A DNA stretch of 64,000 nt from Bacteroidota bacterium (GCA_046302815.1 JBKCHO010000014.1:6530-70529), one strand, 5' to 3'. Positions 6,808-13,024 are shown, numbered from the stretch's first letter. Notes: generated by a model not told the origin, from the letters alone. Program-made: numbers and translations.

Positions 6808-6978
6808 ATGGCTAAAAACAAACAAGAGTGTCCGTCATGCGCCATGATGATCGACAACGGATTGGATGAATGTCCAATTTGCGGCTATGAGTTCCCTAAA
6901 CAGGCATCCAGCATCAAATGGGTTGCCATACTGCTTTTGGTGGTCATTGCCTTTTATTTCATTTTAAGGATTATTTAA
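6808..6978 (+). CDS. 56-aa zinc-ribbon (CxxC-x12-CxxC) protein with a C-terminal TM helix; missing from the ORF track
   Basis: Translated by hand: MAKNKQECPSCAMMIDNGLDECPICGYEFPKQASSIKWVAILLLVVIAFYFILRII*. Confidence 0.75.
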   Translation: MAKNKQECPSCAMMIDNGLDECPICGYEFPKQASSIKWVAILLLVVIAFYFILRII

Positions 6979-7017
6979 TCGTCCGACATTTTTTGTCAAA
7001 CTATTTTTTGAGTGCTT

Positions 7018-7048
7018 ATTGCTTTTTAAAAACCGTGATGTATATTTG
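7018..7048 (+). promoter_or_regulatory. Bacteroidota housekeeping promoter (-33/-7)
   Basis: TATATTTG at 7041-7048 matches TAnnTTTG. ATTG lies 19 nt upstream. The promoter sits directly before the riboswitch P1. Confidence 0.7.
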
Positions 7049-7051
7049 CAG

Positions 7052-7145
7052 CGCATTCCGAGTTTCCATGCTTCATTGCGTGGCGCCAACCGAGACGGAA
7101 CTACGGTGGTAAAATAATGCGGACCTGGCCAGGTCAAAAATTCCG
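7052..7145 (+). promoter_or_regulatory. SAM-I/IV-variant riboswitch aptamer (copy 1)
   Basis: P1 CGCATT(7052-57)/AATGCG(7116-21); J1/2 CCGAG; P2 CCATGC/GCGTGG; P3 CCAACCG/CGGTGG with the AA/U SAM-binding internal loop; no P4; P5 GACCT/AGGTC; PK2 between loop CGGAA(7096-7100) and TTCCG(7141-45). Confidence 0.82.
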
Positions 7146-7356
7146 GGAAATCCCCCGAATACTATCATTGTTCCGTCGCGTTTGCACCGACCTGGTGTGC
7201 ATTTGAATCATTTGTCTGTCACATTGATACAAAGATGTGATGGGCTTATCAAAATGCTCATGCTCATTTTGAACCCGCATCTTGTACACAAACAACGATG
7301 AATTAAAAATTTCAGTAATTATATTCTTAAGGAAGAACAACTAAAAACTCTGACAG

Positions 7357-7569
7357 ATGAAAAACGAAACGAAAAAAAAGAAAAAGATTTTATTCTTAGA
7401 CGAGACTAGGCCAATAAAGCCGTCAAGGACATACTCAGAAGTGATGCGTTCTTGGGATGAAGAATTGTTGTCATTAAATCTCATTACGCCGGGGCAATTA
7501 ATGAAGGAACCGCCGAGCCAACCAGACGATACGATAAAAGTAAAATTCATAAAAAAATCTAAAAAATAA
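7357..7569 (+). CDS. Hypothetical 70-aa Lys-rich protein (orfA), paralog of 8004..8216
   Basis: ATG start behind an A-rich leader. It aligns without gaps to 8004..8216 at ~43/70 identity by hand count, which supports coding status. Confidence 0.7.
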   Translation: MKNETKKKKKILFLDETRPIKPSRTYSEVMRSWDEELLSLNLITPGQLMKEPPSQPDDTIKVKFIKKSKK

Positions 7570-7616
7570 TAATGGCCACATAAATTAACTTATATAATCA
7601 TAAACCCAAAGAAAAA

Positions 7617-7943
7617 ATGAAAAATCACAAAGCAAAATCACAAAAGGTCCGTTCAGAAAAAGTAGATGACAAAAAATATAATTCCTCCAAGCAGGAAGCC
7701 TACATCGAATCCATCCTTCAAGTGTTGAAACAAAAAATGCTTGAATCTCAAGAACGAAAGTCCCAATTGCCCCTGTTTATCCGCAGCACGGAAGATATGA
7801 TGAAAATAATAAACGATAAGAAAGATAAGCAAAGGCATATCGTCCGCAATCAAGCAAACATTACTGCTTTTTTCCAAAAAAGGTCAGAAATGACTGCACG
7901 AACAAAAAAGGAACAAACTGATGAATCGTCAACGGAAATTTGA
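7617..7943 (+). CDS. Hypothetical 108-aa basic, probably helical protein (orfB)
   Basis: ATG behind an A-rich leader, co-oriented between the two paralogs. No recognisable motif. Confidence 0.55.
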   Translation: MKNHKAKSQKVRSEKVDDKKYNSSKQEAYIESILQVLKQKMLESQERKSQLPLFIRSTEDMMKIINDKKDKQRHIVRNQANITAFFQKRSEMTARTKKEQTDESSTEI

Positions 7944-8003
7944 AAGACATCAAATGCATTTCCTTTAAAAATAATTATCATACAAAATTAAAATCTGAAT
8001 AAA

Positions 8004-8216
8004 ATGAAAAACAAAATGAAGAAAAAGAAAAAGATTTTCTTTCACGACGCGACAAAACCGCCGAAACCGTCAAGGACATACTCAGAGGATATGCGTAAAT
8101 TAGATGAAATACTATTGTCTCTTAATCTTATTTCCCCAGAGAATTTAAAAAATCCGCCACCAGAAAACCATGACAATACCATAACGGTTACATTTATTCG
8201 ACGACCAACCAAGTAA
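8004..8216 (+). CDS. Hypothetical 70-aa Lys-rich protein (orfA'), paralog of 7357..7569
   Basis: Shares KKKKKI, KPSRTYSE.MR, LLSLNLI.P and D.TI.V.FI with orfA. Confidence 0.7.
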   Translation: MKNKMKKKKKIFFHDATKPPKPSRTYSEDMRKLDEILLSLNLISPENLKNPPPENHDNTITVTFIRRPTK

Positions 8217-8279
8217 ATCAGCTCTTGACCCTCTATCAGACCATGAAAAATGATTGAATCATAATACCCGAAAATAAAC

Positions 8280-8381
8280 CGCATCCAGAGTTCACTGCAT
8301 GTCAGTGATGCCAACCGGCCCAGTGCGCCCGGTGGAAAATTGATGCGCCATGGGATGTAAATCATCTCACCATGGAAGCGC
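8280..8381 (+). promoter_or_regulatory. SAM-I/IV-variant riboswitch aptamer (copy 2), upstream of metK
   Basis: P1 CGCATC(8280-85)/GATGCG(8342-47); J1/2 CAGAG; P2 TCACTG/CAGTGA; P3 CCAACCGG/CCGGTGG with the AA/U loop; P5 CCATGG-GATG..CATC-CCATGG; possible PK2 GCGC(8325-28)/GCGC(8378-81). Position upstream of metK is typical for SAM riboswitches. Confidence 0.88.
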
Positions 8382-8389
8382 CGTGCTAC

Positions 8390-8426
8390 AGCCCCTGTTC
8401 CGCGGAAGCCGGCAGGGGCTTCTTGT
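8390..8426 (+). terminator. Riboswitch-associated terminator hairpin before metK
   Basis: AGCCCCTG(8390-97)/CAGGGGCT(8413-20) followed by TCTTGT; imperfect U tract. Confidence 0.65.
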
Positions 8427-8467
8427 ATCTAAATCAAATCATAATAACAACCTAAAAACAAAGAACC

Positions 8468-9946
8468 ATGACAACAAATCCACGCCTGATTACTTCCGAA
8501 GCGGTTTCGGAAGGCCACCCAGACAAACTCGCAGATCGCATATCCGATGCCATCTTGGATGCATACCTGGAGGTTGATCCAAAAGCCAAAGTAGCATGTG
8601 AAACCCTGATCACCACGGGTAAAGTGATTATTGCCGGTGAGATATCGGCAACTGGCAAGCCTGCAAATACATTGATTGAAATAGCTCGTGAAGTGCTAAG
8701 GCAAACAGGATATACATCCGAAGCCGTCGGCTTCAACTGTGATACCGCTACCTATATCGACCTTACACACTCCCAAAGTCCTGAGATCTCCTCTAGTGTT
8801 GAACACGGAGGGGCAGGTGATCAAGGCGTGATGTTCGGATTTGCCTGTGATGAAACACCGCAGCTCATGCCGTTAGCGATCACCATCAGCCATGAGATAC
8901 TGGAAGCATTGACGGAAAAAAGGAAATCCGGAGAGATGCCATTCCTTCGACCAGATGCAAAATCACAGGTGACCATCCGCTATGAATATGGTCAACCAAC
9001 AGCGGCACATGTGGTGATTGTATCCACCCAACACGATGAAACGATTGAGCGCAGCCGATTACGAAATATCATAGAGGATCAAGTGGTGAGTCCTATTCTT
9101 CGAAAACATTTTGGAACCGGCAATGCAATGGTCATCGTAAATCCATCAGGTAGCTTTACGATTGGAGGCCCTCATGGAGATACAGGATTAACAGGTCGAA
9201 AGATCATTGTAGACTCCTATGGTGGTGCTTGTCCACATGGAGGAGGTGCGTTTTCGGGGAAAGATGCCAGCAAGGTGGACCGGTCGGCAGCATACATGGC
9301 GCGGTACATCGCCAAACATGTCGTTGCAGCAGGACTCGCCACCAAGTGTACCGTCCAGCTTAGCTATGGCATAGCCATAGACTCCCCCATATCCATTGAC
9401 GTGGACCTCTATGGAAGCTCCGTATATGTCGATAGCGGCGTTTCAAATGCATGCAAACGAATCTTCGACCTGCGCCCATCCAAGATTGCAGAAAAACTCG
9501 GACTGAACAAACCGATTTTCGCCGCAACAGCATCTGGTGGACATTTCGGAAGAGAGGAATTTCCATGGGAGCAACTGGACCCTGGTATCATTGCGGCTTT
9601 ACAATCGGATGAGGAGACACGAATGGACAAGGTTGAGCTGGAGCGGAGAGAACGGGCGCGAAAAGAACATGAAGGAAAACAAAAATACGCGTTACTTCCA
9701 ACGCAGGAACTCATCAATACATTCAATAAGATTGGTAGTATGGAGTTTGAAACCATTCCTCCCAGCGCAATGCTTGCAATCAAGTTCATCCACCATGAAC
9801 TCTTCCAACGAGGAATCAACTGCGACCTGATCAATCAGCGGAATGAAGCGGGCAATATCACGGGATGCACCTTCACCATTCCCATAAGAATTGAAGACAT
9901 TGATGGCAGACCAACCTTGGTAAGGGCGAATGGAGAAATGGAATAA
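8468..9946 (+). CDS. metK: S-adenosylmethionine synthetase with a ~107-aa C-terminal extension
   Basis: SEAVSEGHPDK, ACET, AGE, GAGDQG, RPDAKSQV, GDTGLTGRK, GGGAFSGKD, KVDRSAAY and FPWE (residues 365-368) are all present. The ORF then continues to residue 492. Confidence 0.93.
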   Translation: MTTNPRLITSEAVSEGHPDKLADRISDAILDAYLEVDPKAKVACETLITTGKVIIAGEISATGKPANTLIEIAREVLRQTGYTSEAVGFNCDTATYIDLTHSQSPEISSSVEHGGAGDQGVMFGFACDETPQLMPLAITISHEILEALTEKRKSGEMPFLRPDAKSQVTIRYEYGQPTAAHVVIVSTQHDETIERSRLRNIIEDQVVSPILRKHFGTGNAMVIVNPSGSFTIGGPHGDTGLTGRKIIVDSYGGACPHGGGAFSGKDASKVDRSAAYMARYIAKHVVAAGLATKCTVQLSYGIAIDSPISIDVDLYGSSVYVDSGVSNACKRIFDLRPSKIAEKLGLNKPIFAATASGGHFGREEFPWEQLDPGIIAALQSDEETRMDKVELERRERARKEHEGKQKYALLPTQELINTFNKIGSMEFETIPPSAMLAIKFIHHELFQRGINCDLINQRNEAGNITGCTFTIPIRIEDIDGRPTLVRANGEME

Positions 9947-9958
9947 CCGTCAGTTGCA

Positions 9959-10354
9959 ATGAAAATGGAAAGAGATGAATTGAAGAAACAGCTTGAGCTA
10001 TTCAAAAAGGAGTATCAACAAATATTTGGTAAAATGACCGACCAGAAGTTAGTGGACTCCCACAACAGTGCTTGCAAAATAAAAGCATGGGGCTTGTTCG
10101 TTGCCGTTTATACCGAAGCAAGGAAGGAAGAGCTGCTGAAACGTTTTCCCGATACCACAAACGTAATCGAAAAAAAAGGTCATGAATCCTATTCTTACAG
10201 CTTACGACCGCGAGGTGTTTGGATCGCATATATCAACGGGGTGAAAACCTTGGCTTGCTCCGAGCTTGACGACCAGCCTCCAACCAAACCGAAAACAGAG
10301 CCCTTTAACAAGGATCCGGATGGACATCAACTGGATTCTATGAGCTTGAACTGA
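9959..10354 (+). CDS. Hypothetical 131-aa protein (orfC), probably cotranscribed with metK
   Basis: Starts 12 nt after the metK stop. Its N-terminal half shares a residue pattern with the MetK extension. Confidence 0.7.
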   Translation: MKMERDELKKQLELFKKEYQQIFGKMTDQKLVDSHNSACKIKAWGLFVAVYTEARKEELLKRFPDTTNVIEKKGHESYSYSLRPRGVWIAYINGVKTLACSELDDQPPTKPKTEPFNKDPDGHQLDSMSLN

Positions 10355-10427
10355 TTGAATCGCCTGTAAAACCCTTGTTTTTTGATTAACTTTAAAACTT
10401 TGGGGCTTTAGATTGTTATTACTGAGC

Positions 10428-11531
10428 ATGCGCACTGGTTATAAGTTCATTCCTTACGAAGCAGCTGACGAATCTCCATTCGACAAGCTCTTCGGCATAT
10501 TCAAAGAGCTGATTGTCCATACCTCGGGCGACTTCGACGAGGCTATAGATTGGCTGCGTGAGTTGGACAAGGAATACCAATTGACCAACGAGGCTTATAC
10601 CATTGATGATTTCATCGAGGATTTGAAAAAGCGGGGCTATATCCGAGAAGCGGGTGCCGAGCCGGGCTCTGGTGGAGCCCTGACCGCCAAAATGGAGCGA
10701 GTTATCCGGCAATCGGCCTTGGAGCAAATATTCAAAAACCTGAAGCGAGCAGGATCGGGAAACCACCAAACCTCCTATACGGGTTCTGGTGATGAACATA
10801 CCGGCGAACTACGCGATTTTCGATTTGGTGATTCTTTGGAGCAGATACACATGCCCGAGAGTCTGCGGAAAGCCCAAATTGCTCATGGGATTGACGATTT
10901 CCAAATCAGTGAACAGGATTTGGTTGTTGAAGACACATTTCATAAATCGCAGATGAGCACCGTGCTCATGATCGATATCAGCCATAGCATGATCCTGTAC
11001 GGTGAAGATCGAATCACCCCTGCCAAAAAGGTGGCCATGGCCTTGGCTGAACTCATTCGCACGCGATATCCTAAAGACACTTTGGACATCATTGTTTTTG
11101 GGAACGATGCCTGGCCCGTTACCTTGAAAGAACTGCCCTATCTGCAAGTGGGACCCTATCACACCAACACCGTTGCAGGGCTGCAGCTGGCGATGGATAT
11201 TCTTCGCAGAAAAAGAAACACCAATAAGCAAATATTCATGATCACCGATGGCAAGCCCAGCTGCCTTCGCAACAGGGATGGCACCTATTATTTCAATTCA
11301 AACGGACTGGATCAGTCCATTGTTGACCGCTGTTACGCTGAAGCCATGCAAGCCCGCAAATTGCACATCCCCATCACCACATTCATGATTGCCCGCGATC
11401 CATACTTGCAGCAATTCGTGAGCAATTTCACAGAAGCCAATCAAGGCAAAGCCTATTTTGCCGGACTGAAAGGATTGGGGCAAATGATCTATGAAGACTA
11501 TCGAAAGAGTAGAAGAAGAAAATCGCTCTGA
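10428..11531 (+). CDS. VWA domain protein; probable start MRTGY
   Basis: MIDAS-type motif DISHS (DxSxS), HTNTVAGL and IFMITDG. Confidence 0.85.
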   Translation: MRTGYKFIPYEAADESPFDKLFGIFKELIVHTSGDFDEAIDWLRELDKEYQLTNEAYTIDDFIEDLKKRGYIREAGAEPGSGGALTAKMERVIRQSALEQIFKNLKRAGSGNHQTSYTGSGDEHTGELRDFRFGDSLEQIHMPESLRKAQIAHGIDDFQISEQDLVVEDTFHKSQMSTVLMIDISHSMILYGEDRITPAKKVAMALAELIRTRYPKDTLDIIVFGNDAWPVTLKELPYLQVGPYHTNTVAGLQLAMDILRRKRNTNKQIFMITDGKPSCLRNRDGTYYFNSNGLDQSIVDRCYAEAMQARKLHIPITTFMIARDPYLQQFVSNFTEANQGKAYFAGLKGLGQMIYEDYRKSRRRKSL

Positions 11532-11557
11532 AAAACCCCTACCGAAAACTCGAAAAA

Positions 11558-13024
11558 ATGAACCTAACTGAAATCAACACCCTTGGCGAATTAAAAAAAC
11601 ATGTTGCTCCAAAGCCGCATGAAGGCATCAAAGAAGAATTGCGTCGCAACCTCATAGCTGCATTGAAGAACGGTGACAATCCGTTTGAAGGAATTCATGG
11701 TTATGAAGATACTGTTATCCCAGAACTTCAACGGGCAATTCTTTCCAAGCACAACATCAACCTACTTGGTTTACGCGGACAAGCCAAAACCCGCATTGCG
11801 CGGATGATGGTGAATCTTTTGGATGAGTGGATGCCGATTGTTGCCGGTTCGGAAGTGAACGATGACCCGTTCAGTCCTTTGTCGAGATACGCCAAAGACA
11901 CCATCGCAAAATTGGGAGATGAAACTCCAATTTCCTGGATACATAGAAACGATCGCTTTGTGGAAAAACTCGCCACACCCGATGTTACTGTGGCAGATCT
12001 GATCGGTGATGTGGATCCCATCAAAGCCGCCAACATGAAGCTGTCTTATGCCGATGAGCGCGTCATCCATTTTGGAATGATTCCCCGAGCCAACCGCTGC
12101 ATATTTGTGATCAATGAGCTGCCCGACCTGCAAGCCCGCATTCAAGTGGCGCTGTTCAATATCTTACAGGAAGGAGACATCCAGATCCGCGGATTCAAAT
12201 TGAGATTTCCATTGGACATGCAATTTATTTTCACTGCCAACCCAGAAGATTATACGAACCGAGGCAGTATCGTTACCCCTTTGAAAGATCGTATTGGATC
12301 ACAAATATTGACGCACTATCCGGATTCGGTTGAGGTAGCTGCTAAGATAACTTCACAGGAAATCCGAACCGAAAAGCAAGAACATATCTATATTCCAACA
12401 TTGGCCACCATTCTGATAGAGCAGATTGCATTCGAGGCTCGCCAAAGCGAATATGTGGATGTGAAGAGCGGTGTCAGCGCGAGAATGAGCATTTCTGCAA
12501 TGGAAAATCTAATCAGCGCCGCCGAATTACGCGCATTGAAATACGGTTTGAAGCAAACATCCATCCGCCTTAGCGATTTCCTCGCCATTATTCCTGCATT
12601 GACGGGAAAGATGGAGATTGCGTACGAAGGTGAACAGGAGGGTGCTCGCTTTGTTGCAGAACATCTGATACGACAAGCGATTAAGTCTACTTTCGAAGCA
12701 ATTTTTCCGAAAATAACAAAATTGCAAAAACAAGATGTTGTCGGACCTTATCAAGAAGTTATAGAATGGTTCGCTAATGCTGATGAGGATTTCGAACTCA
12801 CCGAAAATATGGACGATAAATCGTACCATGCACAACTCAATAAAATCATTTCGCTAACACGGTTGGTGGACAAATATCACCCTGTAAAAAATCCGGGAGA
12901 TAAGGCTTTGTTACAAGAGATGATTCTTTGGTCATTAGTTGAACACAAGAAGCTGAGCCAGGTCAAAGTTGACCAAGGCGTTGGTTACTCCGGCGGTTTG
13001 AACGAACTGCTGAAGGGATTGTAG
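11558..13024 (+). CDS. AAA+ ATPase, Mg-chelatase/MoxR-related partner of the VWA protein
   Basis: Walker A variant GLRGQAKT, Walker B variant FVINE, FTANPEDY and PLKDRI. Confidence 0.85.
   Translation: MNLTEINTLGELKKHVAPKPHEGIKEELRRNLIAALKNGDNPFEGIHGYEDTVIPELQRAILSKHNINLLGLRGQAKTRIARMMVNLLDEWMPIVAGSEVNDDPFSPLSRYAKDTIAKLGDETPISWIHRNDRFVEKLATPDVTVADLIGDVDPIKAANMKLSYADERVIHFGMIPRANRCIFVINELPDLQARIQVALFNILQEGDIQIRGFKLRFPLDMQFIFTANPEDYTNRGSIVTPLKDRIGSQILTHYPDSVEVAAKITSQEIRTEKQEHIYIPTLATILIEQIAFEARQSEYVDVKSGVSARMSISAMENLISAAELRALKYGLKQTSIRLSDFLAIIPALTGKMEIAYEGEQEGARFVAEHLIRQAIKSTFEAIFPKITKLQKQDVVGPYQEVIEWFANADEDFELTENMDDKSYHAQLNKIISLTRLVDKYHPVKNPGDKALLQEMILWSLVEHKKLSQVKVDQGVGYSGGLNELLKGL

Follow-up and report, generated by a model that had tools for sequence, protein, structure and literature searches.

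Riboswitches of the SAM-I/IV class are OFF switches for S-adenosylmethionine (SAM); those with terminator platforms halt transcription when the ligand binds. Tandem riboswitches for one ligand were reportedly described as pseudo-cooperative devices by Welz and Breaker in 2007. The SAM-I/IV aptamer was described from metagenomes as a hybrid of SAM-I and SAM-IV without the internal loop of helix P2 (Weinberg et al. 2010, PMC2864571), and same-ligand tandems give a steeper response (Sherlock et al. 2022, PMC9481103). The tandems of the latter survey comprise SAM-I, SAM-II, SAM-II/SAM-V and SAM-II with SAM-I/IV; a SAM-I/IV homotandem is not among them. Pairs more than 300 nucleotides (nt) apart were dropped by design. 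We here deal with a locus of this wider kind. It lies in a 64,000-nt stretch of DNA from an uncultured Bacteroidota bacterium (GCA_046302815.1, JBKCHO010000014.1:6530-70529), called the window below, and consists of two SAM-I/IV aptamers with three small genes between them (orfA, orfB and orfA'), followed by a gene for a SAM synthetase, metK, with a C-terminal tail and by a further small gene, orfC. The 300-nt limit made this arrangement, and similarly interleaved arrays of another genus, invisible to the survey.

Our reading is that the locus is an accessory SAM-synthetase operon induced by low SAM. It would descend from a homotandem with one promoter, a tailed MetK and orfC, between the switches of which orphan genes were later added. 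We give this reading a probability of roughly 70%. That riboswitches for the same ligand occur in tandem is known; new are the gene insertions into a SAM-I/IV homotandem, the domain shared by the MetK tail and orfC, and the arrays that run through the family.

Some traits are shared with the pseudo-cooperative tandems. Two complete aptamers for the same ligand lie on one strand, a sharpened dose response is to be expected, and the relatives of the locus show the classic spacing of about 127 nt. The window differs from close tandems in the gap between its aptamers, which measures 1124 nt; it is about 550 nt in two relatives (L005 and L027), and it stays within the limit of 300 nt (PMC9481103) in four others (L009, L014, L025 and L026). 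Unlike known tandems, the window has protein-coding genes between the switches, so that the genes would differ in the number of checkpoints ahead of them. As to an expression platform for each switch, the terminator of riboswitch 2 is conserved; the platform of riboswitch 1 is clear in relatives, with a hairpin of 11 base pairs (bp), and weak in the window. Riboswitches interleaved with open reading frames (ORFs) are not without precedent: in Desulfobacca acetoxidans mixed clusters of adenosylcobalamin (AdoCbl), c-di-GMP as well as c-AMP-GMP riboswitches are separated by ORFs and were read as three independent logic devices (PMC9481103). The window shares with them several riboswitches within a few kb, interleaved with ORFs. 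In contrast to those clusters, its switches all belong to the same ligand class and have one promoter motif in common.

An initial annotation of the window had listed a promoter, both aptamers, orfA, orfB, orfA', a terminator, metK and orfC. Scans for ORFs, Rfam families and motifs recovered every one of these features at its coordinates (Table 1), the order with metK behind two SAM-I/IV aptamers included. The block from orfA to orfA' is AT-richer than its flanks, as had been noted: its G+C content (GC) is 34%, compared with 44.5% in the window and 48% in metK. The observation is confirmed; the interpretation that had been attached to it is partly supported.

Table 1. Features of the SAM-I/IV cassette; positions are counted from the first nucleotide of the window
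Feature	Position	Strand	Description
Promoter motif	7041..7048	+	Bacteroidota -7 motif TATATTTG (TAnnTTTG), 4 nt upstream of P1 of aptamer 1
SAM-I/IV aptamer 1	7048-7151	+	full-length match to RF01725 (38.8 bits)
Expression platform of riboswitch 1 (putative)	7152..7260	+	P3-complementary segment and hairpins
orfA	7357-7569	+	70 amino acids (aa), isoelectric point (pI) 9.8, Lys-rich N-terminus, orphan
orfB	7617-7943	+	108 aa, pI 9.8, orphan, core AYIESI...KSxLPLFIR...KI
orfA'	8004-8216	+	70 aa, paralogue of orfA
SAM-I/IV aptamer 2	8276-8374 (match); 8276..8385 (element as taken)	+	full-length match to RF01725 (36.2 bits)
Intrinsic terminator of riboswitch 2	8390..8430	+	13-bp G+C-rich stem (hairpin about 8390-8420), then UCUUGUAUCU (UCUUGU)
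metK with tail	8468-9946	+	492 aa; compact MetK core (residues 1 to about 385) and C-terminal tail (about 395-492; DNA about 9650-9946)
orfC	9959-10354	+	131 aa, stand-alone paralogue of the MetK tail by profile comparison; starts 13 nt after the metK stop

The two aptamers are the basis of the argument. With cmscan, RF01725 (SAM-I/IV) gave two matches on the + strand of the window, each of which spans model positions 1-99 of 99. A permissive scan is needed to see both, for the gathering score of RF01725 is 41.1 bits and the default Rfam scan of the whole window returned nothing at or above gathering score. The low score in the window is mainly due to a longer P2, which is poorly aligned by the model and which sets aptamer 1 apart from it; the orthologues of aptamer 1 exceed the cut-off with 44.8 bits (L009 and L026), 41.8 bits (L014) and 42.9 bits (L025). 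In the whole genome of 2.71 Mb there are no RF01725 matches other than these two, and their genome-wide expectation values (E) are 1e-4 and 4e-4.

Both aptamers contain P1, P2, P3 and P5 together with the SAM-I-like core nucleotides, and their P2 has no internal loop (the criterion is that of PMC2864571). In common with RF01725 they have GAG in J1/2, CCAACC...GGUGG in P3, an A-U-rich P1 and a plain P2 hairpin, and they lie upstream of metK. The helices of aptamer 1 read GCAUU/AAUGC (P1), CCAUGC/GCGUGG (P2) and GACCU/AGGUC (P5), with P3 built around the motif just mentioned; those of aptamer 2 are GCAUC/GAUGC (P1), UCACUG/CAGUGA (P2), CCAACCGG/CCGGUGG (P3) and a long P5, CCAUGG..CCAUGG. The pseudoknot between the P3 loop and the 3' tail (PK-2) is possible in aptamer 1, where CGGAA at 7104-7108 faces UUCCG at 7141-7145 by reading of the sequence; UCCG is kept in relatives, and the variation is too small for a covariation test. 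Aptamer 2 deviates from the model here, since its PK-2 complementarity amounts to GCGC/GCGC at most, again with too little variation for such a test.

Pairing and primary sequence have both been preserved. RNAalifold, applied to 7 orthologues, found two pairs of P2 in aptamer 1 that are changed on both sides with the pairing kept. For aptamer 2 the consensus recovers P1, P2, P3 and P5, and 3 double-changed pairs are retained in P2 and P5. Compared with L005, L009 and L014, aptamer 1 is 98, 84 and 86% identical and aptamer 2 86, 78 and 78%. The neutral yardstick is provided by the 4-fold sites of the adjacent metK, which in the same comparisons are 49, 39 and 23% identical; with values as low as these, neutral sites must be near saturation. 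An identity far above that of neutral sites, along with pairing that is kept, implies that both RNAs are maintained, also in the lineages with inserted genes. By these comparisons both aptamers are evidently true SAM-I/IV-type elements; purifying selection on them is strong and has kept them in each of the three states of the locus described below.

The genome has a classical SAM-I riboswitch as well, a single one (G000:C36:2547-2675, L031; 68 bits). It is found ahead of genes for a Methyltransf_30 protein and a homocysteine S-methyltransferase; no match to SAM-II was found. From the position of this sole SAM-I element it follows that the native methionine regulon is run by SAM-I and that SAM-I/IV is confined to the accessory cassette.

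The cassette appears to have one promoter of the Bacteroidota type. In Bacteroidota transcription starts about 4 nt past TAnnTTTG, which here would be at about 7052, the first base of P1. Within 7000-8470, as far as the beginning of metK, the copy at 7041 is the only strict TAnnTTTG, which bears out what had been seen by eye. The motif precedes aptamer 1 in 5/5 loci checked (window, L005, L009, L014 and L025), and it precedes aptamer 2 in none of them.

What follows aptamer 1 is putatively its expression platform. Positions 7170-7177 (GUUCCGUC) complement a segment of P3, GACGGAAC, and RNAalifold with the 7 orthologues shows a conserved alternative pairing behind the aptamer that would unfold P3 and P1. 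A weak hairpin at 7184-7198 leads into a U-rich run, and another of 12 bp spans 7213-7247. The insert-free relatives build their hairpin at this place from CUCAAUUGCAU/AUGCGAUUGAG. Riboswitch 1 of the window lineage may be leaky, or it may act differently, via Rho or translation. The terminator of riboswitch 2 is simpler to describe: it is kept in 7/7 orthologues with G-U wobble changes only, and its identity to L005, L009 and L014 is 85, 80 and 83%. A convincing anti-terminator pairing could not be derived for riboswitch 2.

By its sequence, the enzyme behind the two switches is a true SAM synthetase. It matches TIGR01034 with 495.9 bits (cut-off 309.4) and all of PF00438, PF02772 and PF02773. 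The catalytic motifs GHPDK, GAGDQG, GGPHGDTGLTGRK (the GDTGLTGRK loop) and GGGAFSGKDxSKVDRS are invariant in the alignment with the relatives, and the core is apparently that of a standard, active MetK. The Pfam MetK domains stop at residue 369 and leave a C-terminal extension of about 107 aa. A second, housekeeping metK is present in the genome (contig C140); it encodes 424 aa of the long Bacteroidota type, 48% identical, which makes the riboswitch-gated gene an accessory copy. The same holds more widely: two or more MetK matches occur in each of the 15 family genomes that carry the tail domain, and most other members of the family have one.

How the locus came about can be read from its relatives. 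They were traced by looking up exact proteins, through homologues of orfC, by one scan for a DNA pattern and by searching genomes, and most of them are short metagenome contigs. Three states occur. In state 0 (L009, L014, L025 and L026; MetK 63-79% identical) there is no ORF of at least 20 codons between the aptamers, and the gap is 127-128 nt. In state 1 (L005 and L027; MetK 87-88% identical) a single orfB homologue fills the gap. State 2, with orfA-orfB-orfA', comprises the window, L007, L008 and L022. State 0 is that of the more distant relatives of the cassette, one species of the same genus among them. The cassette is present in 3/6 species of the window's genus, and orfA and orfB are absent where same-genus species keep the cassette (L009, L014 and L025). 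The spacers of the three states can no longer be aligned. Neighbouring genes are partly shared: a YjbR-like gene and a zinc-ribbon ORF lie upstream in the window, L009 and L025, and VWA and AAA_5 genes downstream in the window, L010 and L025; in the state 1 loci the upstream gene is a different one.

The simplest history compatible with these layouts would start from a SAM-I/IV homotandem with the aptamers about 127 nt apart; orfB would have been inserted first, then orfA together with its duplicate. Of the idea that metK has to pass two serial SAM checkpoints about 1.1 kb apart, the two conserved aptamers before metK remain. The spacing is not the design, for the ancestral gap measured about 127 nt.

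The state 0 spacers contain a conserved mini-ORF of 6 codons, MATRPP-stop, about 35 nt before aptamer 2 (L009:1928-1948, L014:1649-1669 and L025:4256-4276). The differences among the three loci are all synonymous and in third positions (GCC/GCG/GCT, ACA/ACC, CCT/CCA, CCG/CCA), and the Pro-Pro-stop end is reminiscent of stalling peptides. Short ORFs are found at a similar place in the window (MKND-stop, 8244-8258) and in L027 (MTEP-stop), possibly by chance.

Arrays of SAM-I/IV aptamers recur in the order. RF01725 was found in 29/146 genomes and 12/40 genera, often as arrays of 2-4 aptamers: there are doubles 64-130 nt apart, a triple in G003 and, in the genus g17, sets of three or four aptamers whose gaps measure 470-850 nt. 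The gaps of g17 contain small genes, which encode either a stand-alone tail-domain protein or an unrelated protein of 105-120 aa (MKPGSIV.CVDD...RFREVLPP). A tailed MetK of about 487 aa closes these arrays, and their layout runs from the promoter over two aptamers, a small gene and a further aptamer to the tailed MetK, with no promoter motif before the last aptamer. By gene order, this is evidently the architecture of the window with a different passenger gene. The search for the neighbourhood in other genomes that the initial annotation had proposed has thereby yielded relatives of the cassette and the same layout in another genus; the small genes themselves turned out to be restricted to the lineage. 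All 15 family genomes with the tail domain have SAM-I/IV matches, at least two in 14 of them and a single one, at the threshold used, in G062.

The family of 105-120 aa is always found directly behind one or two SAM-I/IV aptamers (L044 = G058:C8, L045, L046, L047, L049 and L050). Its motif is MKPGSIV.CVDD...LPV+N+.Y.VR...PN....NGPPG..LEE..G....+SY.G......F+M.RF+EVLPP; it has no match in Pfam and does not occur in the window's genome. Elsewhere (L052, G142:C15, 1059-2906) a tandem SAM-I/IV pair lies ahead of two proteins of 131 and 339 aa that have an N-terminal F..D.LYRQF.GLAS.L in common.

The products of the three genes between the switches are small, basic (pI 9.8-10.1) and hydrophilic. OrfA and orfA' are 58% identical (E 3e-22), with proportions of synonymous and non-synonymous differences of pS 0.72 and pN 0.24 and a ratio of non-synonymous to synonymous divergence (dN/dS) of 0.13. 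Between the window and L022 dN/dS is 0.38 for orfA and 0.31 for orfB, and for orfA' values of 0.13-0.23 were obtained. By these ratios (0.13-0.38 overall), the small ORFs are evidently real coding genes under purifying selection. They are also very rare. A profile of orfA and orfA' finds 5 members among 5.8 billion proteins, every one in this type of cassette. Neither orfA nor orfB has a match in Pfam, PHROGs, NCBIfam or PADLOC or in sequence and profile searches of the PDB; orfB is single-copy in the genome, and the window's genome has no further copies of orfA or orfB elsewhere. The orfB homologue of L027, which stands alone between both aptamers, has 128 aa and is 33% identical; the AYIESI...KSxLPLFIR...KI core is common to both.

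The orfB of L005, a metagenome variant, has a nonsense codon, TAA, at codon 6. This codon and the absence of orfA and orfB from L009, L014 and L025, which do have the cassette, make a core role of the two in the control of MetK unlikely. The initial annotation had proposed that the proteins without known relatives act in SAM homeostasis or MetK control. For orfA and orfB this is not borne out; orfC and the tail domain do go along with this MetK. We think that orfA and orfB are young, dispensable passengers in a SAM-gated, otherwise silent slot, more likely than parts of a MetK control system.

In L022 a second copy of the 3' half of orfA, the spacer and the start of orfB is present past orfA' (L022:853-1218), and in this second orfB a TAA replaces the Tyr codon of the first copy. 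Judging by this arrangement, the orfA-orfB unit (about 647 nt) seems unstable, its copy number changing or gene conversion taking place. Three ideas on the small genes were discarded. That orfB is a ribbon-helix-helix protein, with LPLFIR as the strand followed by a helix, had no support from the libraries or the PDB; that the block is a mobile element was ruled out, there being no other copies in the genome; and a phage origin of the small genes or the tail was dropped after tblastn had found no match among 50,697 phage records to orfA, orfB or the tail domain.

Of the orfC family 7 members were found, and where the contig extends upstream, each is directly behind a MetK of 487-496 aa. A match between the MetK extension and orfC had been claimed from the sequence, and it is invisible to BLASTP (E 0.72, not significant). 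With narrow alignments hhalign, too, gave a score of 18.9 and a probability of 2.3% only, which was equalled by 5 out of 300 column shuffles. The question was settled by adding tailed MetKs and stand-alone proteins of 151-167 aa from two other genera of the family. With alignments so broadened, hhalign links the tail with orfC (probability 86%, E 5.2e-6), the tail with the stand-alone proteins (96%, E 6.5e-9) and the stand-alone proteins with orfC (96.5%, E 9e-10), and one stand-alone protein is matched by orfC in BLASTP (E 1.8e-6). The alignments are shallow. The one with 14 sequences (A9) has an invariant Leu, Asn and Arg and the common motif F..x(T/S)(D/N)xEL(I/V)xx(F/H/Y)N...W...R......E(L/F)xxR..D.S.I. 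On the strength of these cross-genus profiles, the tail and orfC evidently share one new, unnamed domain.

The AlphaFold model of the tail (predicted local distance difference test, pLDDT, 73.5) has three helices (4-24, 28-39 and 48-63) and four strands. The model of orfC is poor (pLDDT 55); its helices (2-25, 28-39 and 46-62, then strands) match those of the tail in position. Foldseek found for neither model a structure with E below 0.1 in the PDB or BFVD, and template modelling (TM) scores stayed below 0.5. Nor did Pfam, NCBIfam, PHROGs, PADLOC or sequence and profile searches of the PDB contain a match to the domain. Its distribution is narrow: it occurs in 16/146 genomes of the order, in 4 genera, and an even sample of 400 genomes of the phylum added one weak match, a stand-alone ORF of 97 aa. 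A word-indexed search with the tail returned 3 near-identical proteins only and missed the diverged fusions, which were later reached via orfC and the genome searches.

An exhaustive phmmer search with the tail led to HYR-repeat giants and to one partial fusion. The giants were judged spurious, because their matches reflect a repeated short strand motif, AGNI.gC.F.v.v. In the tail the corresponding strand motif EAGNITGCTFTIPI lies at residues of about 440-470 (window 9785-9880); its cumulative matches to HYR repeats (DEAGN..sCsFtVtV) were judged convergent.

In mammals MAT2A and MAT2B form a pair of a catalytic and a regulatory polypeptide, and we know of no regulatory domain that has been described for a bacterial MetK. 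Like MAT2B, the tail and orfC are extra polypeptide that always travels with a catalytic MetK; a regulatory role of theirs is conjecture. Unlike MAT2B in descent, the tail domain is unrelated to it. Tail and orfC are paralogues and occur with this MetK in every case; the most economical idea is a module for homotypic interaction or regulation on the accessory synthetase. Our best guess, and a conjecture from sequence, is that the two may be a MetK-associated regulatory or interaction module, e.g., one that pairs with itself.

How could such a cassette work? With transcripts starting behind the motif at 7041, riboswitch 1 would, at high SAM, end most of them before orfA. When SAM falls, orfA-orfB-orfA' would be transcribed with the response curve of a single switch. 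The tailed metK and orfC would be reached only past riboswitch 2 and its 13-bp terminator. The distal read-through would be the product of two SAM-dependent probabilities, and this would make the response steeper and lower the effective threshold. The sequences show the aptamers with the selection on them, the gene order with its evolution, the coding status of the small ORFs, the domain common to tail and orfC and the accessory nature of this metK; that there is one transcript, that riboswitch 1 works as an OFF switch in the window's lineage, and what orfA, orfB, orfC and the tail might do, we infer.

Several points weigh against the operon with serial switches. Both aptamers score 2-5 bits below the Rfam gathering score, the criterion of membership in the family. 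TAnnTTTG is a sparse motif, with 26 copies on the + strand of the 64-kb window, i.e., about 1 per 2.5 kb per strand, and the lack of a second copy over 1.4 kb is therefore weak evidence. Shortly ahead of aptamer 2, at 8225-8254, there is a -35/-10 match of the E. coli type (TTGACC-18-AATGAT), of a sort that is no commoner than in shuffled sequence. The hairpin after aptamer 1 has 5 bp in the window, L005 and L027 compared with 11 bp in the insert-free relatives. Finally, in a short metagenome contig (L023:1-520) a gene like orfA' (74 aa) is joined to the VWA gene without aptamer 2, metK and orfC, with about 140 nt of unrelated sequence between the two genes. L023 is either a real deletion or replacement variant or a chimeric assembly; unless it is chimeric, its layout implies that the block of small genes can exist without the synthetase. 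Of the rivals that build on such points, the strongest supposes two independent units: the insertion would have brought or created its own promoter, riboswitch 1 would control orfA-orfB-orfA' and riboswitch 2 alone metK with its tail and orfC, without any serial gating. The AT-rich gap of 1124 nt is of the composition in which promoters arise easily, the sigma-70-like match is at hand, and gaps of more than 300 nt with intervening ORFs were treated as functionally separate by Sherlock et al. 2022 (PMC9481103). We nevertheless consider two units unlikely. There is no TAnnTTTG between 7049 and 8467 or at the equivalent place of L005, the sigma-70-type consensus is not the promoter type known from Bacteroidota, and its matches are at shuffle level. 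Moreover, no terminator-like hairpin separates orfA' from aptamer 2, and the arrays of the other genus, too, lack the motif before the aptamer proximal to MetK.

Decay would be another explanation of the short hairpin. Riboswitch 1 would then be a relic in the window lineage, the small genes constitutive or silent and their block a neutral or selfish passenger; the nonsense codon in the orfB of L005, the varying copy number of the orfA-orfB unit in L022 and the lack of orfA and orfB homologues outside a narrow lineage would all fit. A relic, however, would have drifted, and in the comparison of the window with L005 the identity is 98% for aptamer 1, against 49% for the 4-fold sites of metK. 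The P3-complementary segment GUUCCGUC is retained and the dN/dS of the small ORFs is low, which leaves this explanation improbable. The least credible of the rivals, to our mind very improbable, is the one that the initial annotation had offered as speculation: the cassette would mainly counter the depletion of SAM by phages, with an inhibitor-resistant MetK that comes on as a phage SAM lyase breaks SAM down and that is helped by the small proteins. Induction by low SAM and the accessory status fit in principle, as does the patchy occurrence within the genus. PADLOC, however, is blank for the tailed MetK, orfA, orfB, orfC and the downstream VWA and AAA proteins, its sole match being a domain, RmuC, in the product of the adjacent rmuC gene; no phage homologues turned up for orfA, orfB and the tail domain, the closest phage MetKs are about 50% identical to that of the window at best, and the chromosomal neighbours in L009, L010 and L025 are the same as in the window.

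If the accessory operon with serial switches is real, its meaning goes beyond one locus. Tandems are usually read as sharpening the response of one gene; here, successive genes of an operon would see one, two or three checkpoints. Serial switches would offer a simple route, by RNA only, to different thresholds for one metabolite within one transcript, and the rule of at most 300 nt in the published survey leaves out such cases, which may have been under-counted. The series of loci, from no gene over orfB to orfA-orfB-orfA', shows small genes entering a regulated leader. Within the order the tail domain hardly occurs other than as a fusion with, or a neighbour of, a second MetK that is riboswitch-gated, which makes it a tangible candidate for a partner or regulator of bacterial MetK. 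One may go further and imagine SAM-I/IV "ladders" throughout the family: 2-4 switches for the same ligand per promoter, small genes in the gaps, each gene with its own SAM threshold, the tailed MetK last and most tightly controlled, the gaps, transcribed in SAM starvation only, as protected landing sites in which orphan genes like orfA and orfB arise or settle, and the tail with its free paralogues (orfC and the proteins of 151-167 aa from the other genus) as the first regulatory or partner module described for a bacterial MetK. As a whole this picture is speculative, and we would sooner bet against it than on it.

Some minor observations concern other MetK-like genes and the surroundings of the cassette. 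ORFs of 362-389 aa match only the first 85 or so positions of the MetK C-terminal domain, with 67-74 bits (G059:C126, G060:C95, G061:C271:1691-1948 and G011:C68:640-885). Those of G061 and G011 have a SAM-I/IV aptamer about 4 kb upstream, on their own strand. The four may represent a diverged MetK-like protein.

Upstream of the promoter the window has the zinc-ribbon ORF of 56 aa (6808-6978). Where it reads GAG in the window (...GYEF...), an in-frame TAA is found in L009 (1489-1570), and it may not be a maintained gene in all relatives. Behind the cassette, at 10413-13024, follow two genes, one for a 372-aa protein with a VWA domain and one for a 488-aa ATPase that is AAA_5/MoxR-like. Their position is conserved in L010, L023 and L025, and the 58-nt gap after orfC contains a near-consensus promoter motif.

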